From assembly GCA_963674755.2 (NCBI GenBank), contig CAXXVS010000003.1, positions 2,624,001-2,688,000 of the forward strand: a stretch of DNA of 64,000 nt, in the 5' to 3' direction. A program made the position numbers and the translations under genes. The notes under the pieces were generated by a model. The model made no database searches and had not been told where the DNA came from. It saw only the letters and a list, made by a program, of their open reading frames with translations. The first letter of the stretch is position 1, and each line of letters starts with the position of its first letter. This document shows positions 32,900-50,021 of the stretch, one piece after another. The DNA is from Desulfobacterales bacterium. Lineage in GTDB: Bacteria; Desulfobacterota; Desulfobacteria; Desulfobacterales; UBA5852.

Positions 32900-32916
32900 C
32901 AACGGGCGCACCGGAC

Positions 32917-32968: not shown

Positions 32969-33042
32969 GGATGGGATATTATGCGTTGATTTTTACGAGG
33001 GAGAGGCAATCACAGGCAACCTGATAGGGAAGGAGAAGGAAG

Positions 33043-34092
33043 ATGCGCAAGTTGACGCTGTTCGTGGTGGTTCTGGCATTGTTGGCCGTACCGTTGGCGG
33101 CCGTCGCCGAAGAGCTCAGGATCTTCACCTGGTCGGAGTACATGGACGAGGAGAAAATGCCGGCGGACTTCGAGGCCAAGTACGGCATCAAGGTCCGGCT
33201 CGACATTTACGAAAATAACGAGGAAATGGTGGCCAAGCTCCAGGCCGGCGGCGTGAGCCAGTACGACATCATCGTGCCGTCGGACTACATCATGCCGGTG
33301 CTGATCAATCAGCACCTCATCCAGCCCCTGGACCACTCCAAAATCCCCAATCTGAAAAACCTCAAACCGATTTTCCGCAACACCACCTATGATCCCGGCA
33401 ACAAGTATTCCGTGGCCTACCAGTGGGGCACGGTGGGTCTGATGTATCGCAAGGACAAGGTTTCGGAAGACGCTGTCAAGTCCTGGTCGGTGCTCTTCGA
33501 CCCTGCCAAGCAGCCCGGGCCCTTCTGGCTCATCGATTCGGTGCGCGAGATGATGGGGATTGCGCTGCTTTACGAAGGCTACGATTTCAACAGCACCGTT
33601 CCCAAAGAGTTGAAGGCCGCCGCCGACATGCTGGTGGCCACCAAAAAGACCGCGGACTGCCTGGGCTTCAAGCCCGGTGTGGGCGGCAAGAACGATGTCG
33701 TGGCCGGTACGGCCGTAGCGGCCATCGTCTACAACGGGGATGCCATTCAGTCGGTGACGGAAAACCCGGACGTGCTGGGCTTCACGATTCCCAAAGAGGG
33801 CAGCGAGATCTGGTACGATTCCATGTGCATCCCGGCCAAGGCGCCCAACCCGGATGCGGCCCTCAAGTGGATCAACTGGATCCTGGATCCCAAGGTGGGG
33901 GCGGAGCTCTCCAACTACAACCAGTATGCCACCCCCAATGCCGCGGCCGAGCAGTACATTACGCCCGAAGATCTTCAGAATCCGGGCATCTATCCCACCC
34001 CGGAGGTTATGGAAAAGCTGCACTTCACCAAGGATCTGGGGAAAGAAAATCGTATCATGGATGAAGCCTGGACCCGGGCCAAGTCCCACTGA
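33043..34092 (+). CDS. potD: Polyamine-binding periplasmic protein
   Basis: Signal peptide, FTWSEYM, YDIIVPSDY, YDPGNKYSVAYQWGTVG, IPKEGSEIWYD. Confidence 0.9.
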   Translation: MRKLTLFVVVLALLAVPLAAVAEELRIFTWSEYMDEEKMPADFEAKYGIKVRLDIYENNEEMVAKLQAGGVSQYDIIVPSDYIMPVLINQHLIQPLDHSKIPNLKNLKPIFRNTTYDPGNKYSVAYQWGTVGLMYRKDKVSEDAVKSWSVLFDPAKQPGPFWLIDSVREMMGIALLYEGYDFNSTVPKELKAAADMLVATKKTADCLGFKPGVGGKNDVVAGTAVAAIVYNGDAIQSVTENPDVLGFTIPKEGSEIWYDSMCIPAKAPNPDAALKWINWILDPKVGAELSNYNQYATPNAAAEQYITPEDLQNPGIYPTPEVMEKLHFTKDLGKENRIMDEAWTRAKSH

Positions 34093-34142
34093 GACAACAA
34101 CGGCGCGTCGGTGATCGGCTGACCGGCCGTTGGTAAGCCCTG

Positions 34143-34179
34143 CAAGGCCTGATTCCGTACGCGAATCAGGCCTTGTTTT
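34143..34179 (+). terminator. Strong hairpin between potD and aguA
   Basis: Perfect 13-bp stem CAAGGCCTGATTC / GAATCAGGCCTTG, 7-nt loop, followed by TTTT. Confidence 0.7.
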
Positions 34180-34194
34180 CAGAGGATTGAAGCG

Positions 34195-35310
34195 ATGGCG
34201 CAGACCTTCCCAAAACAAACACCCCGCGGCGACGGGTTCCGCATGCCGGGTGAATTCGAGCCCCATGCCGGCTGCTGGATCCTGTGGCCCGAGCGGAGCG
34301 ACAACTGGCGCTTGGGGGCCAAACCGGCCCAAAATTGCTTTGTGGCGGTGGCCACGGGCATTGCCCGTTTCGAGCCTGTGACCGTAGGGGTTACCCGAGC
34401 CCATTTCGAAGATGCCCGTCACCAGCTTCCCGACCATATCCGGCTCGTGGAGATGACCCATGACGATGCCTGGATGCGCGACGTGGGGCCGACCTTTGTG
34501 GTCAACGACGCCCGGGGATTGCTGCGCGGGATCGACTGGGAGTTCAACGCCTGGGGCGGCCTGGCCGGCGGGCTCTATTTCCCCTGGCACGACGACGATC
34601 TCGTGGCCGGCAAGGTGCTGGAGATCGAGCGGACCGACGGCTACCGGGCGCCCCTGGTCCTGGAAGGCGGTTCGATCCATGTGGACGGGGAGGGGACATT
34701 GCTCACCACCGAGGAGTGTCTTCTCAATCCGAACCGGAATCCTGCGCTCTCAAGAAGCGCAATCGAAGCCCATTTGCGGGACTACCTGAATGTAGAGCGC
34801 ATCATCTGGCTGCCCCGAGGCGTTTATATGGACGAAACCGACGGCCATGTGGACAACCTGTGCTGCCTGGCCCGGCCCGGGGTCGTGCTGCTCACCTGGA
34901 GCGACGACCCCGAGGATCCGGTCTACAAGATCTGCCGGGAGGCCCATGCGATCCTCTCCCGGGAGTGCGACGCCCGGGGGCGGGCCTTCGAAATCCAGCC
35001 TGTCCATCAGCCCGGCCCGCTGTTCATGACCGAAGAAGAAAGCATCGGGCTGTCCTATTCCCGTTCAGCCAAACCGCGGCGCCCGGGGGACCGGCTGGCG
35101 GGCTCCTACATCAATTTCTACATCGCTAACGGCGGGGTGGTGATGCCGCTGTTCGACGATCCCCACGACGCGACAGCCCTGGAAACCGTGCAGGCCTGTT
35201 TTCCAGAGCGAGAGGTGGTGGGGGTGCCGGCCCGGGAGATCCTCCTGGGGGGCGGCAACATCCACTGCATCACCCAACAACAGCCGGCCGTATCAAATTA
35301 TCGAACGTAA
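34195..35310 (+). CDS. aguA: Agmatine deiminase
   Basis: [59 protein letters not shown]. Confidence 0.96.
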
Positions 35311-35359
35311 TCTTAAGCGGGAGCGGCTTGTTACGCTCCGCTGAAAGAGATTGTAAACG
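35300..35359 (-). mobile_element. Integron attC-like site (60 bp, degenerate R'')
   Basis: Minus strand reads CGTTTAC-AATCT-CTTTCAGC-[GGAGCG...CGCTCCC]-GCTTAAG-ATTAC-GTTCGAT, giving R''/L''/L'/R' spacing 7-5-8-21-7-5-7. It starts 2 nt after the flavin reductase stop. Confidence 0.65.
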
Positions 35360-35361
35360 CA

Positions 35362-35982
35362 TTATTGCTTTTTCAGTAAAGGCCGTTTCAGCTCAAATAG
35401 TTCTCGTGTATATGAATAATAATCGCCACCCATCTTCCCTACTGCATCAAGGAATTTGGGATTAATCGATCTATTGAGAAAAATTCTATCATCAATATGG
35501 ATGCCGATGACATCAAGCAGCATCAATTTGCCGCCTCTGATTGAATCCGAAATGGAGATCACTTCCTTCAATCGGCATTCATAGCGTACTTTTGAATCTT
35601 TTACGCCAAGGGGAGAAACTGATACGCTGTGCACTTGTTCGACTCCGGCAATCGAAAACTCGCTGGCATCATGGGGATAGTCAGCACAGGTTATATTCAT
35701 TTTATCCACTTGTTCGGAGCTGACGATGTTGACAACACATTCCTTTGTTTCTTGTAGATTAATGAGCGTATCCTTTGCCAAACGATCCATAGGTGTTATA
35801 TGGGTGATACTAAGAACTGGCGGATTACAACTGGCGACCGTGAAAAAAGAGTAGGGAGCGAGGTTCATCACCCCTTTTGAACTCTGCGAACTTATCCAAG
35901 CGATGGGACGTGGACAAACACCTCCGATCAGGAGGTGATAAATTTCCTGTGATGTATCTATTTTTGCAATCTCCAAGAACAA
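35362..35982 (-). CDS. Flavin reductase-like (DIM6/NTAB family) FMN-binding protein, AT-rich
   Basis: PRPIAWISS, NLAPYSFF, KDTLINL, ECVVNIV, DAVGKMGG; probable TTG start after RBS AAGGAGA. Confidence 0.88.
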   Translation of the reverse strand: MFLEIAKIDTSQEIYHLLIGGVCPRPIAWISSQSSKGVMNLAPYSFFTVASCNPPVLSITHITPMDRLAKDTLINLQETKECVVNIVSSEQVDKMNITCADYPHDASEFSIAGVEQVHSVSVSPLGVKDSKVRYECRLKEVISISDSIRGGKLMLLDVIGIHIDDRIFLNRSINPKFLDAVGKMGGDYYSYTRELFELKRPLLKKQ

Positions 35983-36560
35983 GGCTGTTCTCCTTTTAAC
36001 AAATACTATTTTTCTTAAATCAGTGAATAAAAGTAGCAAAATATGCTACCTTAAAGTTCACCTCCTTATCTTCAATAGAACTCGTAAATCACGTGAGAAT
36101 AAGTTAAACAAATATGAAATATTTCTTGATTAGCTAGATCACAACAGATGTTACATAGCCAACAAATAGACTCGTATTGCCTAGGGAAGTATACCCTTTA
36201 TTTAAGTTGTCGGAATTTGAAAGCGGCCCTCGCGGTTTCATTGGCATTGGCAGCTAACAAGGAATCTAATGATACATCTTGATCTATTTGAACAAGCGAC
36301 TGGGCCAGACGAGGTTTAATCCAAGTATAGATAAATTACCAATTCGATTGATTTGTTTGGCGTGACACATAGACATGTTGGCAATGAACATCTAAGAGAT
36401 TATTCCGCCCGAGAGATGTTCGCAAACCGTCAAAGCCCGTAGCATTCAGCTGCATAGTACCTACTTTGAGTTGGATATTCCCGGTTACGGCACTGATCAG
36501 ACCGATGCAGCCCTATCAGTTCGCCCTAAGCCATTCCATTTAGTATTGGTGAAAAGCTCG

Positions 36561-37382
36561 TCAGGATTTTGAGAGGAAATCCATTACGGCAGCAGAAAAT
36601 TTTTCTTCCTGCTCCAGATTGGATAGATGGGCGGCATCCAATTCAACGAATTCGGCACCGGCAATTGCTTCCACTAGAAAACGACCATCCGACGGCGGTG
36701 TCGCCGGGTCGGCGCTGCCCGATATGACAAGGGTTGGTGCCTTGATATGGCCGATACGGTCGCGCAGATCCACCTCGCGGATGGCGAGGCAGCTTGCAGC
36801 ATATCCTTCGGCAGGCGTATCCACAAGCATCCTATGTAGCGCGTCTGCCAGCTCGGGTCTGGCCTTGGCGAATCCAGGTGTCAACCAGACCGACAGCACT
36901 TTGTCAGCGATCGCCGATAGACCGTCCTGGCGGACGATTTGAACACGCGAGGTCCAGTTGTCAGGCGGCCCGATATAAGCCGCCGTGTTGGCCAGGACCA
37001 GTTTGTCAATGCGATCGGCGTGGTCCAAGGCGAGGCACATGCCCGTCAGGCCACCCATCGACAGGCCGCAGAAAGAAAAGCGGTCGATTTGCAGATGATC
37101 CACAAGTGAGATGATGTCGTTCCCCAACTGTGCAAGCGTATAAGGCCCTGAAGGGACCGATGAACGGCCGTGGCCCCGCGTGTCGTAGCAGACGACACGA
37201 TACCGGGCTGTGAGTCGTTTGATCTGGGGCTCCCACATTTTCATATTGGTTCCAAGGGAATTGGATAATACGATCACAGGGCGTGACTCATCGCCATGCA
37301 GTTCGTGGTGCAGACGCACTTCAGGTAACTGTGCAAAAAGTGAAGGCATGGTGGGCAGGTTCCTTTCTGCTTCGGATGTCAT
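36561..37382 (-). CDS. pcaD: 3-oxoadipate enol-lactonase
   Basis: VLSNSLGT, YDTRGHGRS, GLSMGG nucleophile elbow, NTAAYIG, EGYAASC, AAHLSNLEQ. Confidence 0.88.
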   Translation of the reverse strand: MTSEAERNLPTMPSLFAQLPEVRLHHELHGDESRPVIVLSNSLGTNMKMWEPQIKRLTARYRVVCYDTRGHGRSSVPSGPYTLAQLGNDIISLVDHLQIDRFSFCGLSMGGLTGMCLALDHADRIDKLVLANTAAYIGPPDNWTSRVQIVRQDGLSAIADKVLSVWLTPGFAKARPELADALHRMLVDTPAEGYAASCLAIREVDLRDRIGHIKAPTLVISGSADPATPPSDGRFLVEAIAGAEFVELDAAHLSNLEQEEKFSAAVMDFLSKS

Positions 37383-37385
37383 ATG

Positions 37386-37682
37386 TCACAGATAATTTTG
37401 TCCGGCCAGATAGGCTTTGCGCCAGCGCACGATAGTGATACGCTCAAACAAGCCGGCCTTGAAAAAGGGGTCGGCGGCGATAAAAGCTTCGGCTTCTTTG
37501 CGGGTGTCGACATCCAGAATATAGATGCCGCCGCCGGCATCGGCACCGCCGTCTTCGAGCTTGGCGCCGCAGGCGAGCAGTTTGTCCTTGTTTTCCTCCA
37601 GAAAGACGAGATGTTCGGGCCGCACGTCTCGACGCATCTGCCTGTGGTCAGGCTTGTCGAAAGTTTCGATAAGAAAAGGCAT
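37386..37682 (-). CDS. YciI family protein
   Basis: DKPD...RRDVRPEHLVFL, LLACG, ADPFFKAGLF. Confidence 0.85.
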   Translation of the reverse strand: MPFLIETFDKPDHRQMRRDVRPEHLVFLEENKDKLLACGAKLEDGGADAGGGIYILDVDTRKEAEAFIAADPFFKAGLFERITIVRWRKAYLAGQNYL

Positions 37683-37703
37683 CGGTTATTCTCCAAGACG
37701 TCT

Positions 37704-37988
37704 TCAATTGTCGGCGATCGCTGACGGATGTTGGGCCAGCGGAATGACACTGATTTGCATGAACGGGAAAAGCGGCAGCGCGCTGATCAGGTCGTGCAGT
37801 TCATCGTGCGTGCTCACATCAAATACACTGTAATTGGCATACTGACCGGCGACACGCCACAAATGGCGCCATTTTCCCTCACGCTGCAGTCGCTGGGCCA
37901 TTTCCTTCTCCTTGCGTTTGAGTTCTTCGGCGGCATCCTGATCGAGATCGTTTGGAATCTCAACGTTCATATGGACTAGATAAAGCAC
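37704..37988 (-). CDS. catC: Muconolactone delta-isomerase
   Basis: GTG start after AAGGAGG; EKEMAQRLQREGKWRHLWRVAGQYANYSVFDV and LPLFPFMQISVIPLAQHPS match CatC. Confidence 0.93.
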   Translation of the reverse strand: MLYLVHMNVEIPNDLDQDAAEELKRKEKEMAQRLQREGKWRHLWRVAGQYANYSVFDVSTHDELHDLISALPLFPFMQISVIPLAQHPSAIADN

Positions 37989-38050
37989 GGCATCCTCCTT
38001 TTTGTCGGGATGAAAAAGCAGTCGCCGGCAGTGTTGCTGCCGGCGTAGCG

Positions 38051-39322
38051 TTACGCGGACAGCGATTCGACAACGGCTGCAATGCCGTGGCCGCCGCCGC
38101 CGCAAATGGTTTCAAGGCCGTATGTGCCACCGCGCCTTCGCAGCTCGTACAACAGGGTCACCAGCCGCATGGTGCCGGTGGCTGCAATTGGATGACCCAG
38201 GGATATGCCGGAGCCGTTGACGTTCACCTTGGCGTCGCAGTCAGCTGCCGAAAGGCCCATCAGTTTGGCATCGGCCAGCACCTGGGCGGCAAACGCTTCC
38301 TGAATTTCGATCAGGTCTATCCGGTCAATCCCCATGTCGATGCGTTCCAGCGCTTTGGTTACCGAAGCCGGAACGGCCGGATAGGTCAGGGTCGGATCCG
38401 AGGCGGCAACCGCAAAGGAGAGAAGCCTTGCCATGGGCTGAAGGCCGAGCTGACGGGCCTTCTCGGCGGACATCATCAGCACCGCGGCGGCCCCGTCGTT
38501 TTCCGTGGAGGAATTTCCCGCTGTGCAGATGCCGTCGGGATAAACGGTGCGAAGGCGCGCTAGCTTTTCGATGTTCGTGTCGGGCCGTGGCGGTTCATCC
38601 TGATCCACGATCAGGTCCGCTCCTTTTTTCTGGGGAAGGTTCAGCGGGACGATCTCGTCCTTGAATCGGCCCGCAGCGATCGCTGCACAGGCCTTCTGAT
38701 GGCTGCCAAGCGCCCATTGGTCGGCGTCTTGCCGCGAGATGCCCTCCTGGGCAGCGGCGGCTTCGGCCCAGCTCATCATGGAGTTGAGTTCGCCGAACCG
38801 TTCGACGGGCTGCGACATGACCCGGGCGCGCTGGATCCGGTCAAACATGGGGATTCCCCACATGGGAAGAGCTCCGTGGCCCTTGGGCATCAACCCCCAT
38901 TTGGGATCGACCTTTCCCCCCATGCCCCATTTGATCAGTTCTCCGGGAATATAAAATTCGGCGCGACTCATGCTTTCGATGCCGCCGGCCACGATGACGT
39001 CGGCATAGCCGCTCATGATTTTCATCGCGCCGAAGCAGATGGCATCCAGCCCGCTGCAGCATCGCCGGTCCAGCGTGATGCCCGGAATTTCCACGGGCCA
39101 GTCGGCCGTTAGCAGCGCCATGCGGGCCACGTTGACCGACTCGCCGTTCTGGTAGGATTGGCCCACGATGACGTCATCGACGTCGGTAGGGGAAACGCCG
39201 GCGCGGGTGACCACGGCATCGAGGACCCGGGCCCCCAGCTTATAGGCGGGGATATCTTTCAGGCCTCCCAGATAACTTCCGATGGGGGTTCGGGCGGCCG
39301 ATACGATAACGATCTCTTGCAT
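38051..39322 (-). CDS. Thiolase (acetyl-CoA C-acyltransferase)
   Basis: VSAARTPIG, RRCCSG, TAGNSS..NDGAAA, QEAFAAQ, SLGHPIAATG, ICGGGG. Confidence 0.93.
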   Translation of the reverse strand: MQEIVIVSAARTPIGSYLGGLKDIPAYKLGARVLDAVVTRAGVSPTDVDDVIVGQSYQNGESVNVARMALLTADWPVEIPGITLDRRCCSGLDAICFGAMKIMSGYADVIVAGGIESMSRAEFYIPGELIKWGMGGKVDPKWGLMPKGHGALPMWGIPMFDRIQRARVMSQPVERFGELNSMMSWAEAAAAQEGISRQDADQWALGSHQKACAAIAAGRFKDEIVPLNLPQKKGADLIVDQDEPPRPDTNIEKLARLRTVYPDGICTAGNSSTENDGAAAVLMMSAEKARQLGLQPMARLLSFAVAASDPTLTYPAVPASVTKALERIDMGIDRIDLIEIQEAFAAQVLADAKLMGLSAADCDAKVNVNGSGISLGHPIAATGTMRLVTLLYELRRRGGTYGLETICGGGGHGIAAVVESLSA

Positions 39323-39378
39323 GATGAAAACTCCCTGTAGTCGGCGTCCGCGAACCGCTGGCACCGGCGATAGCATAT

Positions 39379-40053
39379 TTATTGGAGGTACTCCGTCAGA
39401 TCCGCACTCACCTCGAAGTCGGCCTCGGTTTGCCGACGAAGGGTCTCCAGATCGACGCCCGGAAAGATTTCGACCAAGGTTAGCTTTTTGTCAATGAACC
39501 GGAATACGGCCAGTTCGGTGACGATCATGTCGGCCTCTCCGTAGCCGGTCACCGGCAAAGAGCATGAGCGGACGATTTTCGGCTTGCCCTTTCCGGTGCG
39601 GTGAATCATGGCGACAATCACCTGGCCGGCCCCACTGACAAGGTCCATAGCGCCGCCGACCCCGAGCTGCCGGCCGTTTGGAATCACCCAGTTGGCGATA
39701 TTGCCATCGGCGTCCACCTGGAAGGCTCCGATAACGGTGGCATTCACATGGCCGCCGCGGATCATGCCGAAGGATTCGGCACTGTCAAAGTAGCAGCAGC
39801 CTGGCGTTTGCGTTACCGGTTCGCGGCCGGCGTTGATGAGCAAAGGATCAATTTCAGTTTCCACGGCCTTGCGCCCCACACCCAGCATCCCGTTTTCCGC
39901 CTGGATGAAAACGAGTTCAGAGCGGATGTAGTTGGCCACCATCGTGGGAATGCCAACGCCGAGATTGATAATCATCCTTTGTTGCGAATGATTGAATTCG
40001 CGGGCGATGCGTTTGGCAATGCGCGTTCTCTCTTCAATCTCAGGCGTCGGCAT
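39379..40053 (-). CDS. 3-oxoacid CoA-transferase subunit B
   Basis: NLGVGIPTMVA, QAENG (catalytic Glu), SFGMIRGGH, GVGGAMDLV, IVTELAVF. Confidence 0.92.
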   Translation of the reverse strand: MPTPEIEERTRIAKRIAREFNHSQQRMIINLGVGIPTMVANYIRSELVFIQAENGMLGVGRKAVETEIDPLLINAGREPVTQTPGCCYFDSAESFGMIRGGHVNATVIGAFQVDADGNIANWVIPNGRQLGVGGAMDLVSGAGQVIVAMIHRTGKGKPKIVRSCSLPVTGYGEADMIVTELAVFRFIDKKLTLVEIFPGVDLETLRRQTEADFEVSADLTEYLQ

Positions 40054-40717
40054 GGGGAGGCTTCCTTTCGATGATGTAATCGACATACAGGTGCGGCGTT
40101 ACGATGCACTCCGGATCCAGCGCCCCGGCCGGGAGCACCTCTTCCACCTCGACGATGGTGACTTTGGCCGCCATGGCCATCAGCGGGTTGAAGTTGCGGG
40201 CGGTCTTGTAGTAGGTCAGATTTCCCAGCGCATCAGCCCGGTAAGCCCATATCAAGGCCACATCGGCATACAGCGCCTTTTCCAGCAGGCAGGTACGGCC
40301 GTTGAAAACCCGTGTCTCCTTGCCTTCGGCCAGGTCGGTGCCCACACCGGTGGGCGTAAAGAAGGCCGGAATGCCTACCCCGCCGGCGCGAATCGCCTCT
40401 GCAAAAGTTCCCTGGGGTAGAAGGGTCACGTCGATTTTCTTGCTGAAATAGGCCTCCGGGACCTCAGGGTTCCAGTTGTAGTAATTGCCCACAAGCGCTT
40501 TGATCTGCCCGTTTCTCAGCAGGCGCCCCAGGCCCTTGCCAGGGGTTCCCAGGTCGTTGGAGATGATGGTCAGATCCTTGGCGCCCGAATCGACCAGAGC
40601 CTGGATTAGCAGGGCCGGTAGCCCTGACATGCCGAAGTTGCCGATCATGATTCGATTGCCGGATTCTACGGCCCCTATGGCCTCCTGCAATCCCACGATT
40701 TTCGATGGATGTTTCAT
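40040..40717 (-). CDS. 3-oxoacid CoA-transferase subunit A
   Basis: DLTIISND, PQGTFAEAIRAGGVGIPAFFTPTGVGT, ARNFNPLMA, IVTPHLYVD. Confidence 0.92.
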   Translation of the reverse strand: MKHPSKIVGLQEAIGAVESGNRIMIGNFGMSGLPALLIQALVDSGAKDLTIISNDLGTPGKGLGRLLRNGQIKALVGNYYNWNPEVPEAYFSKKIDVTLLPQGTFAEAIRAGGVGIPAFFTPTGVGTDLAEGKETRVFNGRTCLLEKALYADVALIWAYRADALGNLTYYKTARNFNPLMAMAAKVTIVEVEEVLPAGALDPECIVTPHLYVDYIIERKPPHADA

Positions 40718-40747
40718 TGTTCTCCTCATTACGATTCAGCCAAGGAC

Positions 40748-41428
40748 TTACGCTTCAATGGCAATGGCCCGTATCGGCGAGCCGCTGGCGCCCTTGATTT
40801 TAAGGGGAAGTCCGATGAACTGAAACCGGCTCTCCCTAAGCTCGCCCAGGTGGGCGAGGTTTTCAATGATCGGTATTTCATTCTCGACCAGCAGGAACAT
40901 GTGCACGGGGCGCGCCATGTCGTCGGACCCGGTTTCCAGAATACCCATGTCGGTTCCGATGGCCTTGACACCGTTTTCGATCAAGAAATTGGCCCCGGAA
41001 AGGGAAAGGCCCCTAGCGTGGTGATAATCGCCCTCGCCCCATTCGCCTTTCCAGCAGCGCACGATGGCGATATCGCCGGTTTTTAAGGCCAGTCCCTTGC
41101 GGGCAAGATAGGCCTTGATCATCTCCGCATCGATCGGCTGGTCGAGGCCCTTGTCGCTGACATCGACTAGAATCCCATCCCCCATCATGTTATCGAGAGG
41201 GACAGCCTCCACGGTTTTACCCTCAGGATCGAAATGGAACGGTGCATCCACATGGGTCCCCATGTGATCGGAAGTGAGAATGAGCATTGATGCATAGCCG
41301 ACGCAGGGCGGGATATACCTCGGTGCCGAGAAACTGTGGGTAACCGCATCCATCATCGTCATTTTGGGATGGGTAGGAAACGAACGAAAACCGTCATACA
41401 ACTCAATGGTCAGATCGACGATCCGCAT
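40748..41428 (-). CDS. Cyclase/kynurenine formamidase-family metal-dependent hydrolase
   Basis: MRIVDLT, HMGTHVDAPFH (HxGTHxDxPxH), IIENL, PLKIKGASGSPIRAIA. Confidence 0.9.
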   Translation of the reverse strand: MRIVDLTIELYDGFRSFPTHPKMTMMDAVTHSFSAPRYIPPCVGYASMLILTSDHMGTHVDAPFHFDPEGKTVEAVPLDNMMGDGILVDVSDKGLDQPIDAEMIKAYLARKGLALKTGDIAIVRCWKGEWGEGDYHHARGLSLSGANFLIENGVKAIGTDMGILETGSDDMARPVHMFLLVENEIPIIENLAHLGELRESRFQFIGLPLKIKGASGSPIRAIAIEA

Positions 41429-41534
41429 TTTGAAACCCTCCGCCTGTTTGGCCGGTGGCAGCGCCACCGGCCAAATGGATTGTCTCCCTGAGGCTGCGCC
41501 TCCAGAGACGGTTTTTATTGGATTCCCGATTTTT

Positions 41535-43115
41535 CTAAGGGGCCACTTTCGAGCCGAACCACACGGCAAAGGCAAGCACCGCGACGCCCACCGCCGCCGT
41601 TGAGTAGGTAAAAGAGACCAGCGATTTTTTGGGGGTGCTCAGCTCGATTTCAGGGTTGATGGTATTGCACTGTTGGAACACCATAAGTTGGCTTTCCGAG
41701 GGACGGGTGGCGGCGCTGACCGCATACAGAACAATAAAGGCGCCGACCACGCTCCAGATGACGGGATGAATGCCGAAAGGCAGATACCCGCTCCAGGCCA
41801 GTTTCTGGCCCATAAAAACCGGGATGATGCTCAAGAGGGTATCCAGAATCAGCCCCGTCAGCATGGAGGCCACCGCTCCCTGTCGGGTGCAGCCGGACCA
41901 CCAGAGCCCCATGATCAGAACCGGAAAAAAGGCGGCAGCAAAAACAGAACTGCCGAAATTTCCTACCAGAAGAACGATCGTCGGTCGGCCCCAGGCGATC
42001 ACCACGGACAGCACAGCGATAAGCGCGATGGAGCCCCGGGCGACTTTCAGCAATTTCTTTTCGGCTTCGGCGCCAGCCTCTTTGAGAAAAAAGGTTTCAT
42101 AGATATCCCGGGAGATGCTGAAGCCCAGCGTTAATATTTGCGTGGAGGCAGTGGAAAGCACCGCGGCGAACAGACCGGCGATGGCCAGCGCGCCTACGAT
42201 CGGCGTTACGAGATCGGTGGCGGCCCACACCAGAACCGAAGAGGGGTTGGCTAGATCCGGATTGACCACATGAACCGCACCGGCGGCCAGGTGAGAAAGC
42301 CACACCACCGGGATCGTGATCATCAGTGCCAGCATGATCGCTTCGGTCCAGGTCCGGGCGTCCTTGGCAAGATAGGCCCGTGTTATGGCCGCCGGGTTGG
42401 CGGCGTTTCCCAGGCCCCAGAGAACCTGCCAGCCGATAATTGTCCCCCAGCCGACGACCCCGCCTGTGGCCGTGAAAAAAGTCGGGTTGGATTTGGCAAA
42501 GGCGCTGATGTTTTCCATTCCCACCTTAGCGAGGATCATGGGTGAAAAAAACATGCCGATGAATACGCATACCATGGCGAACATGATGGTGTCGGTTACG
42601 GTTACGCTTCTAGCGCCACCGGTGATGGCGATAATCGCAAAGACGATCACCATCAGCGGAAGCATGATGTTAAAGGGGATGCCAAGCACACCCTCGGTGA
42701 TGACGGCGCTTCCCACTAATTGGCTGATGAAATAGGCGCCGAGGCCGACCAACGTAACAACGGAGGAGAGAATCCGGATAAAGGGGCTGTCAAAGCGGGC
42801 CTGAAAGTAGTCACCCAGCGTCACCTGGCCGAAACGCCTCAGTTTGGGTCCGATAAAGAAGGCTGAAATAATAAATCCGGTGAACGCCCCCCAGATCAGG
42901 ATTGCCATGAGCGGCCCGCTTTTGTAAGCGGCACCGGTGATGCCGACCATCCCGACGGCACTAACCCATGTGGCCGTGTAAGTACCGGCAATCAGCCACG
43001 GCCCGGCCGTTCCTCCCATGACGTAAAAATCGTTCAGGCCCTTTGACTTTCGCCCCAAATAGACGGACACAAACAGGAAAATGAAGATGAAGCAAAAGAA
43101 GATGATTTTGAACAT
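41535..43115 (-). CDS. Sodium:solute symporter family transporter
   Basis: DFYVMG, TLGDYFQARFDS, GGARSVTVTD, AAVLSTAS, GLWW...GAVASM; about 13 TM segments. Confidence 0.9.
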   Translation of the reverse strand: MFKIIFFCFIFIFLFVSVYLGRKSKGLNDFYVMGGTAGPWLIAGTYTATWVSAVGMVGITGAAYKSGPLMAILIWGAFTGFIISAFFIGPKLRRFGQVTLGDYFQARFDSPFIRILSSVVTLVGLGAYFISQLVGSAVITEGVLGIPFNIMLPLMVIVFAIIAITGGARSVTVTDTIMFAMVCVFIGMFFSPMILAKVGMENISAFAKSNPTFFTATGGVVGWGTIIGWQVLWGLGNAANPAAITRAYLAKDARTWTEAIMLALMITIPVVWLSHLAAGAVHVVNPDLANPSSVLVWAATDLVTPIVGALAIAGLFAAVLSTASTQILTLGFSISRDIYETFFLKEAGAEAEKKLLKVARGSIALIAVLSVVIAWGRPTIVLLVGNFGSSVFAAAFFPVLIMGLWWSGCTRQGAVASMLTGLILDTLLSIIPVFMGQKLAWSGYLPFGIHPVIWSVVGAFIVLYAVSAATRPSESQLMVFQQCNTINPEIELSTPKKSLVSFTYSTAAVGVAVLAFAVWFGSKVAP

Positions 43116-43163
43116 TATACCTCCTCAGAGCTTTCGTATAAGGGATTCGCTAAACCGTCGGGC

Positions 43164-43262
43164 TTACAAACGCCCGGTTTTCATGAAATAAAAGGCCAGC
43201 CCTACACAGATCATGTACAATGAGAAGTGATACAGCCCCACGCCGAGAAAGCCCATGTTCAT
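43164..43262 (-). CDS. 32-aa hydrophobic small protein preceding the SSS gene (not in ORF track)
   Basis: RBS AAAGGAGA; MNMGFLGVGLYHFSLYMICVGLAFYFMKTGRL*. Confidence 0.6.
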   Translation of the reverse strand: MNMGFLGVGLYHFSLYMICVGLAFYFMKTGRL

Positions 43263-43345
43263 TGTCGTTCTCCTTTGGTTGATGCGCTTGAGATGAAAAG
43301 AGGTTTTACCCTCGTGCCGTTATTGAATCCCATGCTTGTGCCCGC

Positions 43346-44377
43346 TCATGCGACGGTCAAGACCGGTTTGGCCACCTTCTGCTGCAGCGCATCGCTAAAC
43401 GCTTGCAGCGCGTCATCCAGATCGTACATCTCAAGAAGCGGCGCGATCACCAGCTTCTTTTGTTCGATCAGGGCCAATGTGTCTTCATAGTTTTTCCATC
43501 CCGAGGTATAGCTGGTGGTCAGATTCCACTCGTTTCGGATGGCGTCCGAAAAGGGGAATCCCATCTTAGGCAAAAGCCCGAGGAAGAGCAGCTCGCCGCC
43601 TTTGCGCAAAAGCGGCAGCGCCGACAGGACCGCTCCGGGCGATCCGGAGCATTCGATGATGATGTCGGCCGGGTGATTTCCCGCAATATGCCGAAACGCT
43701 GTTTGCAGTTCGGTTTTATCCACGTTGATCGTTGCAAATCCGAGTTGCTCGGCCAGCTTCAGGCGCGAAAATGCGTCGCTGTCTTTGCCCACCACGATGA
43801 CGTTCCTCGCCCCTTTGAGCAAGGCCATCTGTGCGGCCGCTAGGCCAACAATGCCGGGTCCCATGACAACCGCGATATCGCAGGGGCGCATTACCGAACG
43901 GTCAAATAAGGCATGGGCGCTGACCGTGCATGCCTGGGCGGCCGCCGCCTCGGCCGAGGAGAGCGTCTCCGGTACGCGGTGAAGATATCGGTCGCCGATC
44001 CGAACGTATTCGGACATGACGCCGTCGATGCTCAGGCCCCGCATCCGATTGTTGAGGCAGATATGTGTTTTACCCTGGCGGCAGTTGGCGCAATGGCCGC
44101 AGGACAGATTGGATTCTCCCATCACCCGGTCTCCGACCCGGAACCGGGCCTCGGGACCTGCCTCGACAATCTTTCCGCAAAACTCATGCCCCAGAACTAC
44201 GGGGACGCTCATCCAGTGGTAATTAGGCGGGTATTCGTAGGCATGCAGATCGCTTCCGCAGACGGCTGCACACTCAACAGATACAATCAAATCATCGGGG
44301 GACTGGATAACCGGCTCAGGCCGAGTGACGATGCCGGCGCTGTTTTGCGTCCGTTCGGTTTTTGCGACAGCCCTCAT
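43346..44377 (-). CDS. Zn-dependent medium-chain dehydrogenase (threonine/polyol dehydrogenase-like)
   Basis: CGSDLH, LGHEFCG, CGHCANC...C, GPGIVG. Confidence 0.92.
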   Translation of the reverse strand: MRAVAKTERTQNSAGIVTRPEPVIQSPDDLIVSVECAAVCGSDLHAYEYPPNYHWMSVPVVLGHEFCGKIVEAGPEARFRVGDRVMGESNLSCGHCANCRQGKTHICLNNRMRGLSIDGVMSEYVRIGDRYLHRVPETLSSAEAAAAQACTVSAHALFDRSVMRPCDIAVVMGPGIVGLAAAQMALLKGARNVIVVGKDSDAFSRLKLAEQLGFATINVDKTELQTAFRHIAGNHPADIIIECSGSPGAVLSALPLLRKGGELLFLGLLPKMGFPFSDAIRNEWNLTTSYTSGWKNYEDTLALIEQKKLVIAPLLEMYDLDDALQAFSDALQQKVAKPVLTVA

Positions 44378-44441
44378 GTGTCAACTCCTCTATTTGTGGC
44401 AGCAGCTATTCGTTAAAAAATGGTCAATAATTTGAAAAAAG

Positions 44442-45215
44442 TTAGTCGACCAGTCTTCCGCCTTCGATGAAGATTGTCTGCCCGGTGATGTAGGCGGCGC
44501 CTTCTGATGCCAAAAAAAGAACGGTGGAAGCGATTTCTTCCGGTCGGCCGAACCGTTTCATGGGGATTCTTTCCAGCAGGGCCTTTTTGATCTCAGGCTG
44601 GTTTAGATACTGCGCGGTTTGCTGGGTCAGCACATAACCAGGACCCACGGCGTTGACCGTGATGTTGTAAGGGGCCCATTCATGGGCGAGCACCTTGGTG
44701 TATTGATGGATTCCCCCTTTGGTGGCCGCATAGATCGACAGATTCTTATGCCCCCTGACTGCCGATACGGAAGCGGTGTTGATGATGCGCCCGCCGCCGT
44801 TTGCGATCATGGTGCGACCGACTTTCTGGGCCGTGAAGTAGGAACCCCGTAAATTCAGGTCGACAATGGTTTCCCATTCGCTCGGCGTATAGTCCGCGGC
44901 AGGTTTGCGGATATTCAGACCGGCATGGTTGCAAAGGACGTCTACCTTGCCAAAGGTTGCAACGGTCTGCTGGACCATTGTTTCGATGCTGTCGATATCG
45001 CGTAAATCAACCTGGAGCGATTCGGCCCGACCAGCACACGATTGCCGGTGGCAGGCTTCGACGGTTTCCCTGGATGCTTCTGGGTTGATGTCAGCAACCA
45101 TGATATCGGCACCGCATCGGTAAAATGCCTTGGCAAATTCTCTCCCGAGGGTTCCTCCACCACCGGTAATTAAAACGGTGTGGCCGGTGAAGTTAAAAAG
45201 ATTTCTGTAGTCCAT
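44442..45215 (-). CDS. Short-chain dehydrogenase/reductase (gluconate 5-dehydrogenase/KduD-like)
   Basis: TGGGGTLG, NHAG, YAATKGG, LAHEWA..NITVNAVGPG, YITGQ. Confidence 0.92.
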   Translation of the reverse strand: MDYRNLFNFTGHTVLITGGGGTLGREFAKAFYRCGADIMVADINPEASRETVEACHRQSCAGRAESLQVDLRDIDSIETMVQQTVATFGKVDVLCNHAGLNIRKPAADYTPSEWETIVDLNLRGSYFTAQKVGRTMIANGGGRIINTASVSAVRGHKNLSIYAATKGGIHQYTKVLAHEWAPYNITVNAVGPGYVLTQQTAQYLNQPEIKKALLERIPMKRFGRPEEIASTVLFLASEGAAYITGQTIFIEGGRLVD

Positions 45216-45334
45216 CGATTTCCTCTTTTCTGTTCAGGCCGGCTATGTTGTAATTTTCGTTGGGAGAGACGGCCGGAATCGTTCCCCTTCAGGATGCGCC
45301 GGAAACCCCAAAAAAACAGACTGCCGGTATACAG

Positions 45335-45350
45335 AGCAAGATCAATACCA
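45335..45350 (-). promoter_or_regulatory. Sigma54 -24/-12 promoter for the leftward catabolic operon
   Basis: Minus strand TGGTAT-TGATC-TTGCT, ~120 nt upstream of the SDR start and divergent from a bEBP gene. Confidence 0.8.
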
Positions 45351-45580
45351 GATATAGGAAAATTGCTTCGTTGTGGTCATAAAGGGGGGCGGCGGCGTCC
45401 TCCAATTAAACCCCTATGAAATAACGCACTATAAATTCAGGGTATTGTGGTCATTAGAGAGGCCAGGTAGTCATGATTATAGAATCAGGCGCTGAATCGC
45501 TGCCTTGACTTTTTAGGTTTTTTGGGATTTTCTTTCTGGCCGTTTAGGTAGCCTAAAATTTTCCCAAATGAGGGAGGAAA

Positions 45581-47668
45581 GTGATGCCGGCGGGAAAGTG
45601 CCTTTTGATTTTGTCCCTTGATTCCAAGGTGCATGCCCATCTCAAGCGGATTGTAGGCGAGATCATCGGAGACCAGGTTCGTATTCACGATATGTCGATC
45701 AATGATCCGGATATCTTGCACGTTGCGCCAGATGTCATCCTGGTTTCCGGTCCGTTTCTGGCCCCTGAGGCTTCCCGGTTTTTTCCCAATACGCCTATTA
45801 TCGCCCCTGTCAGGACCATCACCGGCCACAATCTGGAAAAGGTCGTGCGCATTCCAAGCAGGAAGCGGGCGCTTGTGGTCACAAGCCACCAGGAGGCTGT
45901 CGAAGGCACCATCAACGGTCTTCTCCGGCTCGGCATCGATCACATCGACTATGTCCCATACTGGGGTGAGCAGGAGATTGATCCAACCACGATCGATGTC
46001 GCCATTACACCAGGGATGTCCTACCTGGTGCCTGACGGTATCAAGTGTGTCATCGACATCGGCCCACGGGAAATCAGCATTTACACGTTTCTTCGGCTTC
46101 TGAAGGCGCTTGATCTCGACACGGCCCTCATTGAGGATTTCGCCGACCAGTACCTCCGGCATTTGATGGAGTTCACCTGGAAGCTGGTCGAGGTCCTCGA
46201 CGGCTCCGAGCTGCAGCGAAAATTCAAAGAGGTCGTCATCAATGAATTTGAAGATGGGGTTCTTTCGGTGAACAATGCCGGTATCATCACCCTGGTCAAC
46301 AATGCGGCGTTGAAGATACTCGGCCGGGAGTCGGCCCAGCTGATACAATCACCTTATGCTGAGCTCAAGGTTAAATTCGAGAAACTTGCCGATATCCGGA
46401 TCGGACCCAATAGGCCGGATAAAATTTCAGGGATATTCGCATTTGAAGGGAAAAAGGTGGTGCTGTCCAAAATTCCCGTCGAAAGTGAAAACCAAAGATC
46501 CACCATCATCACCTTGAGGGAAATCGATACCCTCCAGCGAATTGAAGAAAAGGTACGGTTGGAGTTGTCGCGGAAAGGCTTTGTCGCCAAATATCGATTC
46601 ACGGATATTCATACGACCTCGCCGTCGGTCGAGCTGATTATCAAAAAGGCGAAAAAATTCGCCCGCACCGGGAAGAACATACTGATAACAGGAGAGAGCG
46701 GCACCGGAAAAGAACTATTCGCACATGCGATCCACCGCAATTCGCCTCAGAAAAGCGGCCCTTTTGTGGCGGTCAATTTCGCGGGGCTCCCCGAAAGCCT
46801 GATCGAAAGCGAGCTTTTTGGCTATGAGACGGGCGCTTTCACAGGGGCGCTCAAAGGTGGCAAGAAAGGTTATTTCGAGCAGGCTCACGGCGGCACCATT
46901 TTTTTGGATGAAGTCGGCGATGCGCCTTTGAGCCTTCAGAAACGGCTATTACGCGTTCTGCAGGAAAAAGAGGTAATGCGGTTGGGCAGCTCCAAAATTA
47001 TTCCCGTGAAGGTTCGCGTGATCGCGGCAACGAATACCAGGCTGCACGATGCGATTTGTGCGGGAAGATTTAGGCAAGATCTTTACTATCGGCTGAACAC
47101 ACTGCCGATTGAGATCCCCCCGCTGCGTCATCGACAGGAAGATATCATGCTGATACTGGCGCTTCATTTGCGCAAAAATTACGGCATAGTTAAACATTAC
47201 AGTCCCGCTGCGCAACAATGCCTTCAGGACTACCCATGGCCCGGCAACATCCGAGAATTGATCAACGCTGCAGAATATATCACCTTTTCATCGGATGACC
47301 GGGAGTTGATTCAGCAGGAAGATTTGCCGCCGTACATTTTCTCGCCCGAAAAAATGCCCATCCCGACAGACGCCCGTGCCCTGAAGTCGGTCCAGGAGCT
47401 TGCCGAAAGTATTGCGGAAACTGACCATCATAAAAAACTGGTTTACCACTGCTTGCATTCTTTATACCTTCGTCCCGGAGTCGGACGGAATCAGCTGGTC
47501 CTGGATTTGGCAAAATGCCGGGTCGAGGCAACTGAAGGCAGAATCCGGTCGCTTTTAATCTGGTTCAAAAGCCATGGGTTAATAAAGGTGGGTAAAACAA
47601 AGCAGGGCACAATGATCACCGAACGGGGAACGTCGATGTTACGATTGCTTTCGGAGCAGGTTACATAA
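45581..47668 (+). CDS. Sigma54-dependent activator with N-terminal sensory and PAS domains and a C-terminal winged helix
   Basis: [48 protein letters not shown]-terminus GLIKVGKTKQGTMITERG. Confidence 0.92.
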   Translation: MMPAGKCLLILSLDSKVHAHLKRIVGEIIGDQVRIHDMSINDPDILHVAPDVILVSGPFLAPEASRFFPNTPIIAPVRTITGHNLEKVVRIPSRKRALVVTSHQEAVEGTINGLLRLGIDHIDYVPYWGEQEIDPTTIDVAITPGMSYLVPDGIKCVIDIGPREISIYTFLRLLKALDLDTALIEDFADQYLRHLMEFTWKLVEVLDGSELQRKFKEVVINEFEDGVLSVNNAGIITLVNNAALKILGRESAQLIQSPYAELKVKFEKLADIRIGPNRPDKISGIFAFEGKKVVLSKIPVESENQRSTIITLREIDTLQRIEEKVRLELSRKGFVAKYRFTDIHTTSPSVELIIKKAKKFARTGKNILITGESGTGKELFAHAIHRNSPQKSGPFVAVNFAGLPESLIESELFGYETGAFTGALKGGKKGYFEQAHGGTIFLDEVGDAPLSLQKRLLRVLQEKEVMRLGSSKIIPVKVRVIAATNTRLHDAICAGRFRQDLYYRLNTLPIEIPPLRHRQEDIMLILALHLRKNYGIVKHYSPAAQQCLQDYPWPGNIRELINAAEYITFSSDDRELIQQEDLPPYIFSPEKMPIPTDARALKSVQELAESIAETDHHKKLVYHCLHSLYLRPGVGRNQLVLDLAKCRVEATEGRIRSLLIWFKSHGLIKVGKTKQGTMITERGTSMLRLLSEQVT

Positions 47669-47966
47669 ACCAGGCTTGCTATGCAAGGCGCCAGCAGAGG
47701 GGCCGATATTGTATCGAGCTGAGATTTTATCCCATACATCAACCGCGTTTTGACAGAAAATTACTGACGTTTTCCCCAAGTAACAAGGAAAGACTTGCTA
47801 TTTTTTTGCAGGATATGCCACTCATTGCCTGACAAAACCTTAGTCATTCCTGGGGAAATCTTGAGCAGCGCAAATCCGGCAGAGCGTCGCAGCGAAGTTG
47901 ATGAGGAAGGGGCGTCCATAGAATACGCCCTATAATGAGATCGGATTGGAAGGTGTTGCACGGACA

Positions 47967-48803
47967 TCATTTTGCTCGACCTCCGTCCGGCAAAGAAGGC
48001 TCGCTTTTCTCTTCAACGAATTCCTTTTCGACATAGTGGTTGACCGCCTTCATCATTGCTTTCACCTTTTCTGAGGCGGGCAACGCCTTACAGATGTCAT
48101 CGATATAGTTCCGGGAAATGACCGCATCGAGAGTGGGTTTGAAGTTCACGTCAAAAACCCAGCCGATCTGGAGCACCTTGAAATCGCTAAGCGTCTGAAT
48201 ATGGTGAAAATCGACAATCTTTTTGTTCATTACCGCGTCATACACCCTGTCCGATATTTCCGGGGTATCCGGCAGTTCCAGTTCAAGGGCACTGTTTGAA
48301 CTGTGGTCCGAGCAGCGGTAATGGCGGATCAGGACTCTCCATATATCCAGTTTGTCCGCATCCCGAAGCAATTTTGCATAGAACAAACATGGCTCCGTCT
48401 CTCCATCGGGGAGGGCGGGGCGATTATGGTATGATATAATCCGGTAGGCGAGATCTTTTAACGAATCGTTCAGGCAATCGAGAACGCCATGATCTTTGAG
48501 GGTTTTTACACTCAATGCGGCATGATTCTCGGATTTATAATCGACAAAAGTGCGATACAGGACATATTGTTCGAACCGCCCGACATCATGAAACAAAGCG
48601 GTAATTTCAGCAAACCGAAGCGATTCCCCTGATAGACCGAGGCTTTTGCCAATCCGTAAGATTTCTCCACAGACACGTTTCGAGTGACTTTTTTTTAGAA
48701 GAATATTCTCCCGGATATCGCCTCGATCGGTACAAAACGTCTCTGCATATCCATTAAACCACTTTCGCAGGGACTGTATCAATTCATCGCCGATATAGGC
48801 CAT
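47967..48803 (-). CDS. HD-domain metal-dependent phosphohydrolase
   Basis: KKSHSKRV, ALFHDVGRFEQY, NHAALS, YHNR, LRDADKLDI. Confidence 0.88.
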   Translation of the reverse strand: MAYIGDELIQSLRKWFNGYAETFCTDRGDIRENILLKKSHSKRVCGEILRIGKSLGLSGESLRFAEITALFHDVGRFEQYVLYRTFVDYKSENHAALSVKTLKDHGVLDCLNDSLKDLAYRIISYHNRPALPDGETEPCLFYAKLLRDADKLDIWRVLIRHYRCSDHSSNSALELELPDTPEISDRVYDAVMNKKIVDFHHIQTLSDFKVLQIGWVFDVNFKPTLDAVISRNYIDDICKALPASEKVKAMMKAVNHYVEKEFVEEKSEPSLPDGGRAK

Positions 48804-49222: not shown

Positions 49223-49237
49223 ACGGCGCACTCCTCA

Positions 49238-49435
49238 GTGTCCATCCCTATAGGGCATCTTTTGGCCCCTGGCGGCGTTCGCGCCTCCTGTCGGTCCTCG
49301 GCGCAGCCGGGCTACGTCTGTGGGCGCCCGTCGGCTGCGGTTTGTTGAACACCAATGTAGTTAACAAATCAGACGCGAAATCCTGCGCTGTGCGGCGGGA
49401 CCGGAAAGCAAAATTTACCACCTATAGATGGACAC
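49238..49435. mobile_element. MITE-like element, copy 2
   Basis: Perfect terminal GTGTCCATC / GATGGACAC; internal CGGTTTGTTGAACACC..AAATCAGA..GAAATCC shared with copy 1. Confidence 0.8.
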
Positions 49436-50021
49436 GCCTTGGCTGGCTGGGTGTGTGGGGCAACTGTCGTTGGGTCAATTTTGACACAATATGTGTATTA
49501 GGATGCCTAGTGGCTATTAGCCTGGGTCAAGGTAAATTGCAACTTCTTTCAGAGTCCGGTCGCATGCCAACCGGCAGCCTGGGAGGGGGCTGAAACCGAC
49601 CCACCGACCGTCGAGACTGGCCTGCGAAGGATTGCGCCGACGCCATCATTTAAGCCTGCCTGACCAGGAACGGCGGCCAAGAAGAAGCGTTTGCGTGCCG
49701 CACCCGGAAGGATCGACCGTTTCCTTCCAGCGCGTGGGCTGGTTTCGCAAGGGCCTGCCATCCGGAGCGCTTGACGTTTGCGACACGTTCGCCGTTGCCA
49801 ATCCCTGAGAGATCTAATGCTAAGAAAATCTTGACAAAATGAAATGTCTTTCAGTATCTACAGCTAATTCTCCTAAACATCGTACCGCTTTCAGTTCCTG
49901 CGCCTTCCTTTTACGATGACCGAAGTTTTTCCTGATCCGACCGCTATCCGCCAGGTTCGCCGCTCTTTCTTTCCAGCTATCTCAGCCATCCCTTCAACAA
50001 CCCCAACGAATAGGTGCCATC

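Follow-up and report, generated by a model that had tools for sequence, protein, structure and literature searches.

The catechol branch of the lower β-ketoadipate pathway carries muconolactone to succinyl-CoA along with acetyl-CoA by CatC, PcaD, PcaIJ and PcaF. The β-ketoadipate pathway is treated as an oxygen-dependent marker, and matches to catC and pcaD in metagenomic data are taken to mean that aromatics are degraded aerobically. We analysed an 11-gene unit with catC and pcaD from a Desulfobacterales bacterium, which lies on a stretch of 64,000 nucleotides (the window; GenBank assembly GCA_963674755.2, contig CAXXVS010000003.1, positions 2,624,001 to 2,688,000 of the forward strand). Like the described pathway, the unit has a true CatC and PcaD, then a 3-oxoacid CoA-transferase and a thiolase. 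It differs by the lack of CatA/CatB and PcaGH/PcaB in the genome, by sigma54 control and by a thiolase that is not PcaF, and it adds a short-chain dehydrogenase/reductase (SDR), a Zn-dependent dehydrogenase (Zn-ADH), a cyclase-family hydrolase, a YciI protein and a sodium:solute symporter (SSS), in an anaerobic host. From its sequence the unit appears to work like the lower pathway and not to be a member of the aerobic pathway. We propose that it serves the oxygen-free uptake and breakdown of C6 dicarboxylic lactones via 3-oxoadipate; this reading, whose substrate is deduced, we hold to be evenly balanced between true and false. The end product is probably 3-oxoadipate, either as such or substituted.

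Two other described systems are close. The oxidative deoxyribonate pathway reportedly uses a dehydrogenase to form a free 3-oxo acid, which is then handled by a CoA-transferase and a thiolase or by a BKACE. The unit would share the passage from a 3-oxo acid to the CoA-transferase and thiolase, but has no glycerate step and uses CatC and PcaD. The anaerobic phloroglucinol pathway (PGR, DPGC, TfD, TAL), as given in passages of PMC10470551, has in common with the unit an SDR, a Mn-type cyclase-family hydrolase, a dehydrogenase, 3-oxoacid cleavage and anaerobic hosts. The unit differs in lacking the DPGC substrate residues (by motif mapping), in an SDR that is not PGR-like and in the presence of catC, yciI and pcaD. 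No description of the cluster was found in the literature searched, which largely did not cover subscription papers, and the passages of PMC6449761 and the GapMind preprint that we consulted do not describe it. The proposed scavenging route is probably undescribed so far, with related gene sets in aerobic and anaerobic bacteria.

CatC, YciI, PcaD and the CoA-ester enzymes

The features of the unit are listed in Table 1. The catC product passes the curated cut-off for the CatC family. Aligned to 1MLI and ClcF, it kept Glu27, His87 and Ser89 as in 1MLI, whereas ClcF has Ala89; we take these three to be the functional residues. The pcaD product likewise passes that for the PcaD family. Its alignment to 2XUA showed Ser108, Asp225, His252 and Arg146 retained, presumably the Ser-Asp-His triad and a carboxylate-binding Arg, and its true start is probably Met12 at 37349. 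From their family assignment and retained residues, the two enzymes are predicted to convert muconolactone to the enol-lactone and this to 3-oxoadipate.

YciI lies between the two. CatC is S-specific, and its fold class is also that of YciI. The YciI clade comprises at least 1035 clusters at E ≤ 1e-20. An identity with the dehydrochlorinase TftG was rejected, as the match was distant (E 4e-10), the protein belongs to the NF009503 clade and there is no chlorohydroxyquinol context.

Table 1. Features of the 11-gene unit and its control region (positions in the window).
Feature	Position	Strand	Basis
SDR dehydrogenase, KduD/gluconate-5-dehydrogenase-like	44442..45215	-	family scans, PDB ranking
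Zn-dependent dehydrogenase, distinct clade (Gln at usual third-ligand Glu)	43346..44377	-	family scans
32-aa hydrophobic small protein, likely symporter accessory	43164..43262	-	ribosome-binding site and homologs
Sodium:solute symporter, uncharacterised clade	41535..43115	-	PF00474
Double hairpin in symporter-cyclase gap (module junction)	41429..41534	-	z -4.26; 0/200 shuffles fold as well
Cyclase-family metal hydrolase, short 226-aa type; putative lactonase	40748..41428	-	PF04199
3-oxoacid CoA-transferase subunit A	40040..40717	-	TIGR02429 246 > 128.5
3-oxoacid CoA-transferase subunit B	39379..40053	-	TIGR02428 255 > 243.6
Thiolase with insertion, not PcaF	38051..39322	-	TIGR01930 399 > 241
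9-bp GC-rich hairpin, thiolase-catC gap; possible partial terminator or RNA-stabilising stem	38023..38045	-	z -2.39; 6/200 shuffles
catC, muconolactone delta-isomerase	37704..37988	-	TIGR03221 146 > 130.6
YciI protein, PRK12863.1-3 clade, TftG relative; putative second isomerase or eliminase	37386..37682	-	NF009503 160 > 145
pcaD, 3-oxoadipate enol-lactonase	36561..37382	-	TIGR02427 318 > 255.9; 2XUA E 1.5e-77
Sigma54 -24/-12 site CTGGTATTGATCTTGCT, ~120 nt 5' of SDR start	45335..45351	-	motif search
Sigma54-dependent activator (PAS + AAA+), divergent, predicted unit regulator	45581..47668	+	PF00158 223 bits

The first-pass annotation of this DNA had named the CoA-transferase and thiolase as PcaIJ and PcaF, and this could not be upheld. 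The CoA-transferase passed only the subfamily models pcaI/scoA and pcaJ/scoB, the thiolase failed both PcaF models (TIGR02430, 322 < 597; NF006551, 326 < 605), and the closest relatives of both serve an aminotransferase operon. The thiolase of a true catechol operon of Bacillales fails TIGR02430 too (412 < 597), so the failure lowers membership and not function. The thiolase was 74-76% identical to thiolases of congeners; the PDB search with it was uninformative. Subunit A of the CoA-transferase grouped in the tree with L007, L008 and L122-L124 (the loci are introduced below). Enzymes of the Bacillales catechol operons were the top 3 of 819 plasmid matches of the CoA-transferase.

The host genome and the missing upper pathway

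The host genome (6.7 Mb, 97.4% complete, not closed) has dsrA over cut-off, which marks a sulfate reducer and bears out the earlier guess of an anaerobe. The absence of upper-pathway genes, noted first for the window, holds across this genome: both the intradiol dioxygenase and the cycloisomerase (CatB/PcaB) of the aerobic pathway are lacking. There was no match to PF00775 (intradiol dioxygenase) or PF00848 (Rieske oxygenase), none of three pcaB matches was over cut-off, and tblastn of the genome with three catA proteins and BenA found nothing. A hidden catB was ruled out, as both enolase-family proteins of the host fall far under the cut-off (162 and 119 bits against 335). None of ten matches to the benzoyl-CoA ring hydrolase was over cut-off, and the seven CMD-family matches all lie outside the window. 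Without these oxygenases and cycloisomerases, muconolactone cannot arise in the host cell by the known route.

The unit might still form the lower end of a normal aerobic ortho-cleavage pathway, with the upper genes at another place in the genome or missing through an assembly gap. The genome is not closed, and it holds three heme-copper oxidase family matches and one LigB-family gene. But that gene stands alone, judged by eye we take it to be a lone DODA-type protein, and extradiol cleavage does not yield muconolactone. An HpaB-like match at 20% is presumably a 4-hydroxybutyryl-CoA dehydratase, again by eye. Given the empty searches above, with no complete aerobic upper pathway found elsewhere, the chance of such a tail is close to negligible.

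Front dehydrogenases, symporter and cyclase

Neither the SDR nor the Zn-ADH matched an equivalog, and the named enzymes closest to them use sugar acids and hydroxy-sulfonates as substrates. The SDR probably prefers NAD, to judge from an acidic residue after strand 2, and its clade motifs are common to L007-L009, L024 and L033. The Zn-ADH was 46-48% identical to those of L007-L009 and L014. Homologs of the small protein lie 5' of the symporter in L007, L008, L009 and L010 (E 2e-6 to 4e-3; 41-53% identity in L007-L009). The symporter had 43 homologs at E ≤ 1e-40, with seven genome loci.

These affinities fit a rival explanation, in which a C6 acid or lactone of higher oxidation state would be the substrate (a sugar acid, an aldarate, or 3,4-dihydroxyadipate from muconic dilactone). 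The SDR and Zn-ADH would then act in series, YciI would eliminate water to give a butenolide for CatC and PcaD, and the thiolase would cleave a hydroxylated 3-oxoacyl-CoA. The SDR is nearest to KduD, gluconate 5-dehydrogenase and HpsO types, the best named plasmid matches of the Zn-ADH are annotated as RhcE, a 2-keto-3-deoxy-L-rhamnonate dehydrogenase (34%), and YciI is related to the eliminase TftG. Elsewhere the symporter stands beside IlvD, enolase dehydratases and a DHDPS-family enzyme. The unit itself, however, has no IlvD, enolase or aldolase, the host genome has no homolog of the enolase in L010, and CatC and PcaD keep their canonical residues. We consider this explanation rather unlikely.

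The cyclase model (pLDDT 94) has the fold of KynB and isatin hydrolase, with the HxGTHxD metal motif and the catalytic His and Glu kept; His55, His59, Asp61, His176 and Glu189 were invariant in the alignment (A2). Fold search and the ESM Atlas returned only the cyclase family, and the protein failed the KynB cut-off TIGR03035 (72 < 223). Members of the family are amide and C-C hydrolases according to passages of PMC10470551, and the discussion of PMC12135135, the part consulted, states that a cyclase-family enzyme hydrolyses lactones.

Another alternative is a phloroglucinol-like route. In it, reduction by the SDR or a double oxidation would give a cyclic 1,3-diketone, the cyclase would perform retro-Claisen cleavage, and a triacetate-type acid would pass to the CoA-transferase and thiolase. 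The same families (SDR, cyclase, dehydrogenase, BKACE or CoA-transferase plus thiolase) form the cluster of C. scatologenes in the passages of PMC10470551, and L019, L135 and L136 combine a cyclase with an SDR, a 3-hydroxyacyl-type dehydrogenase and a BKACE. This pathway was rejected on the cyclase residues and the PDB ranking of the SDR, and we regard it as very improbable. The DPGC substrate residues Trp20 and Tyr22 given in those passages correspond to Arg15 and Phe17 of the window cyclase, a mapping made by motif and not with the DPGC sequence, and the phloroglucinol reductase 5G4L was not among the best 60 of 86 PDB matches of the SDR. It would also leave catC and pcaD unexplained.

Layout, control and assembly support

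The unit runs on the minus strand from 45215 to 36561, in the order SDR, Zn-ADH, small protein, symporter, cyclase, CoA-transferase A and B, thiolase, catC, yciI and pcaD, with intergenic gaps of -14 to 106 nt. Open reading frames, family scans and the motif search thus agree with the first-pass annotation, which had described an 11-gene leftward unit with a -24/-12 promoter and a divergent activator. With the -24/-12 site and the AAA+ activator, the unit is predicted to be a sigma54-dependent operon. Three positions of the site depart from the strict consensus, and the five matches found with at most two mismatches do not include it. The looser pattern YTGGYA-N6-TTGCW, picked after the site was known, occurs 50 times genome-wide, against 0.0014 occurrences expected in the 365-bp gap upstream of the unit. 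A -24/-12 site stood at the matching position in 5/5 examined related loci with a sigma54 activator (L007, L012, L122, L123 and L124). The window activator was 35% identical to that of L012.

The assembly is real, since a single contig of 12,874 bp from the independent run X3 contains the whole unit (42 differences). The X3 depth over 35260-48131 was 6.65, compared with 9.7 in both flanks, and a 490-bp contig matched only parts of 47904-48131. Together these suggest alternative alleles, and the segment probably varies within the X3 population. No convincing boundary repeats or attachment site were found around it. Short, nearly identical pieces of the unit also turned up in X7, a rhizosphere run; in X10, a marsh run, most of the pieces were more divergent.

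Related clusters in other bacteria

Among the 20 listed plasmid matches of yciI, nine were examined, which include seven of the 12 at 55% identity or more; those left out of the 12 were four same-species or sister-strain repeats and one from C. campinensis. Common to all seven loci were catC, an AtoE-type transporter and a long cyclase of 335 aa, together with pcaD (5/7), an SDR (4/7), a 3-hydroxyacyl-type dehydrogenase (3/7) and a BKACE (1/7). No catA or catB was present within 8-12 kb in any of the seven. This table used identity thresholds, and an enolase-family gene of L130, ~7 kb from yciI and 26% identical to catB, was not counted as catB. The two loci with yciI at 50% or less had none of the catC, long cyclase, AtoE, pcaD, SDR or dehydrogenase neighbours. 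The BKACE, in the Sulfitobacter cluster, passed NF053568 (3-oxoadipate:acetyl-CoA acetyltransferase, 468 > 350), and BKACE groups acting on β-ketoadipate are cited in the parts of PMC8963497 and PMC4922564 consulted.

This proteobacterial cluster shares with the unit the YciI clade, catC, pcaD, a cyclase-family hydrolase, dehydrogenases and the lack of an oxygenase nearby. It differs in the cyclase (335 aa vs 226 aa), in the transporter (AtoE vs SSS) and in ending with a BKACE, whereas the unit has a CoA-transferase plus thiolase, the Zn-ADH and another SDR clade. Its entry substrate was not found in the literature searched.

The catechol ortho operons of Bacillales, on plasmids of Peribacillus (L106:7930-15363) and Priestia (L107:6562-15379), are a second point of comparison. 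Like the unit, they have a CoA-transferase (49-54%), a thiolase and a short cyclase that falls in one broad clade with that of the unit (35-38%), but they carry catB (457 > 335) and an intradiol dioxygenase. They lack catC and a PcaD-type hydrolase, and in that place stand the short cyclase, a dual CMD and a DUF3870 protein, which are candidates for non-homologous counterparts of CatC and PcaD. The short cyclases of the window, the Bacillales and related loci formed one 54-row clade with SH-aLRT 93 in a quick tree; the other trees were built with FastTree on 7-21 rows. CMD and DUF3870 (40-60%) recur in the oxygenase-free L020, L052 and L033 with cyclase, dehydrogenases, CoA-transferase and thiolase. 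The AtoE proteins of L014, L020 and L052 are 47-60% identical to the proteobacterial AtoE, linking both cluster types, and the SDRs of L033 and L024 fall in the SDR clade of the window (45-46%, same motifs).

A third, sulfate-reducer-type kind of cluster (L135:1-11043, L136:1-11013, L019:650-11716) holds a cyclase, two SDRs, a 3-hydroxyacyl-type dehydrogenase, an OYE flavin reductase, a BKACE and an ABC transporter. Its BKACE was over none of the curated cut-offs. L135 and L136 come from sulfate-reducer relatives, and no catC was found in these two genomes. CatC/YciI (window and seven loci), dual CMD (five) and OYE (six) never co-occur among the tabulated loci, an exclusion that was spotted after the fact and among kin loci that are not independent. 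L009, L014 and L024 have none of the three.

In L008:537-14905, L010, L011 and L013 the symporter clade also occurs with IlvD, enolase dehydratases, a DHDPS-family enzyme, a nickel-pincer isomerase (group 22), OYE and an EF0837-like amidohydrolase. These clusters likely represent other C6-acid pathways. A survey of Bacillota with the cyclase profile gave 5/401 hits, all of another clade (32-34%) and with no shared context. Weak MIase-like matches in relatives (L004-L006 and L102-L105) had no such cluster in ~3 kb. Another cyclase clade stands beside microcompartment shell genes and UbiD/UbiX in L117:2-9806 and L121:482-10154, along with adenine-deaminase-like and formiminotransferase-like genes named by eye.

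Mosaic origin

The unit appears to be a mosaic of three ancestries. The SDR, Zn-ADH, small protein and symporter recur at 46-62% identity in L007, L008 and L009 (Bacillota and Synergistota), with an amidohydrolase in place of the cyclase and no catC; L007 and L008 also have CoA-transferase and thiolase. The activator (47-49%), CoA-transferase (65-70%) and insertion-type thiolase (74-76%) match an operon in three congeners. The third group, catC, yciI and pcaD, is proteobacterial. In a survey of synteny and gene phylogeny, as the first-pass annotation had suggested, catC, yciI, pcaD and cyclases occur in clusters without an oxygenase whose end point is 3-oxoadipate, and the CoA-transferase and thiolase are nearest to an aminotransferase operon.

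In the congener operons (L122:4036-17047, L123:3663-16723, L124:3176-17981) these genes are combined with a class III aminotransferase, a Liv ABC transporter and an aldehyde:ferredoxin oxidoreductase, joined in L124 by a P5C-dehydrogenase-like enzyme. One idea is that they may degrade β-lysine or 3-aminoadipate to 3-oxoadipate.

Low GC had been taken as a sign of acquisition. The GC content of the unit is 55.5% against ~61% in the flanks, but among stretches of this size in the genome the value ranks no lower than the 22nd percentile, and composition therefore says little on acquisition. The patchy distribution is stronger evidence: catC was in 0/12 congeners and over cut-off in 1/401 genomes of the phylum, the SDR in 0/12 congeners, the symporter clade in 1/401 genomes of the order and the cyclase clade in 3/351 genomes of the class.

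Such a mosaic could also be a chance join of two modules. The front eight genes would degrade some 3-hydroxy or 3-oxo acid, and catC-yciI-pcaD would have come separately from Proteobacteria, either borrowing the CoA-transferase and thiolase or remaining weakly expressed passengers. The rarity of catC in the phylum, the front module without catC elsewhere, the hairpin before catC and the GC3 of the trio (0.60-0.65, vs 0.68-0.74 in the middle genes) all fit this account. On the other hand, catC, yciI and pcaD are all intact with their catalytic residues, donor clusters already combine yciI/catC with a cyclase and dehydrogenases, and no promoter-like site was found in the 62-nt gap before catC. 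For the best homologs of yciI, cyclase and symporter (91-96%), the longest contig listed measures 20,047 bp in each case, and this common figure suggests the same hybrid in another lineage. We judge a chance join unlikely.

Proposed route and points against it

In the route that we propose, the symporter would import the lactone or the open acid. The cyclase would open a saturated lactone (3-hydroxyadipate 3,6-lactone, that is dihydromuconolactone) or a hydroxylated analogue, and the SDR and Zn-ADH would use NAD+ to oxidise the resulting 3-hydroxy acid in its two stereoisomeric forms. Muconolactone would enter through CatC and PcaD, and the CoA-transferase and thiolase, as non-orthologous stand-ins for PcaIJ and PcaF, would convert 3-oxoadipate into succinyl-CoA plus acetyl-CoA. 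More speculatively, YciI would act on a form of muconolactone beyond the reach of CatC (the R enantiomer or the dilactone), as an isomerase or dilactone eliminase. The exact scheme of two lactones and two enantiomers is doubtful. The lactones might be supplied by aerobes, from leaked muconate, or by abiotic lactonisation at oxic-anoxic boundaries; according to passages of PMC11638912, muconic acid forms muconolactone and dilactone in hot acid (80 °C).

The first-pass annotation had set an oxygen-independent entry from a lactone or hydroxy acid against the scavenging of muconolactone. The host, the missing upper pathway and the gene context favour such an entry, and the two probably merge into one route. 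The heterocycle that it had also named as a substrate is unsupported because the unit has no nitrogen-handling gene.

Several observations weigh against this lactone route. The published abiotic lactonisation was under the acid and heat just given. The front module lacked catC in 7/7 symporter loci and in 5/5 of those genomes searched, which are incomplete metagenome-assembled genomes. In 4/7 of these loci the symporter adjoins IlvD, enolase-type dehydratases, a DHDPS-family enzyme or a nickel-pincer isomerase, which suggests sugar acids. The CoA-transferase stands in a clade of its own (support 99), separate from the enzymes of the Bacillales catechol operons, and its closest relatives serve the operon with aminotransferase and aldehyde:ferredoxin oxidoreductase. 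Where BKACEs accompany the short cyclase, in L019 and L136, they score too low for the 3-oxoadipate cut-off (244 and 232 < 350). The cyclases of the catechol operons have lost the clade-specific His20, Ser34, Arg37, Tyr38 and Met171, and many loci of the cyclase clade, often on short contigs, have no such neighbours. The aerobes of the seven yciI loci may hold catA and catB outside the 8-12 kb examined. Stable hairpins also stand at two module junctions (symporter-cyclase and thiolase-catC); that before catC, the longest terminator-like stem in the region, may limit read-through.

A bolder reading is a widespread salvage of lactones from swappable parts, in which racemic muconolactone and its reduced form are eaten without oxygen, by sulfate reducers included. 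YciI would be an (R)-muconolactone isomerase or dilactone eliminase, the dual CMD the CatC analogue of Bacillota, OYE a third option and the cyclases lactonases. We offer it as speculation that is unlikely to hold. If true, it would link sulfate respiration to the opening, by aerobes or abiotically, of aromatic rings derived from lignin, and would give functions to four orphan families (the PRK12863 clade of YciI, two cyclase clades and dual CMD/DUF3870). Even the more limited lactone route, an oxygen-free feeder in a sulfate reducer, would, if true, reveal that products of ring cleavage cross-feed into anoxic sediment, and would change the annotation of catC and pcaD. The comparison also yields cheap tests for the orphan families, namely the YciI clade (at least 1035 clusters), the two cyclase clades and the Bacillales catechol operon that lacks catC. 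The bioproduction of muconate and adipate would also have a use for enzymes able to clear muconolactone isomers.

Surroundings of the unit

On the 3' side of pcaD (35362-36560), inside the variable segment, there is a flavin-reductase-like gene with a GC content of 43%, together with a non-coding, AT-rich stretch of ~590 bp. Positions 28307-35310 hold aldehyde:ferredoxin oxidoreductase-like, polyamine-type ABC transporter and agmatine-deiminase-like genes, with names given by eye. Congeners keep the last two genes, with other genes after them. On the other side, a 100-200 bp element at ~49230-49440 has many copies in the congeners G004 and G005 (80-93% identity) and is probably a REP- or MITE-like repeat. 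A GMC oxidoreductase gene (50434-52080, 52% GC, cholesterol-oxidase-like by eye) is also present in G001.

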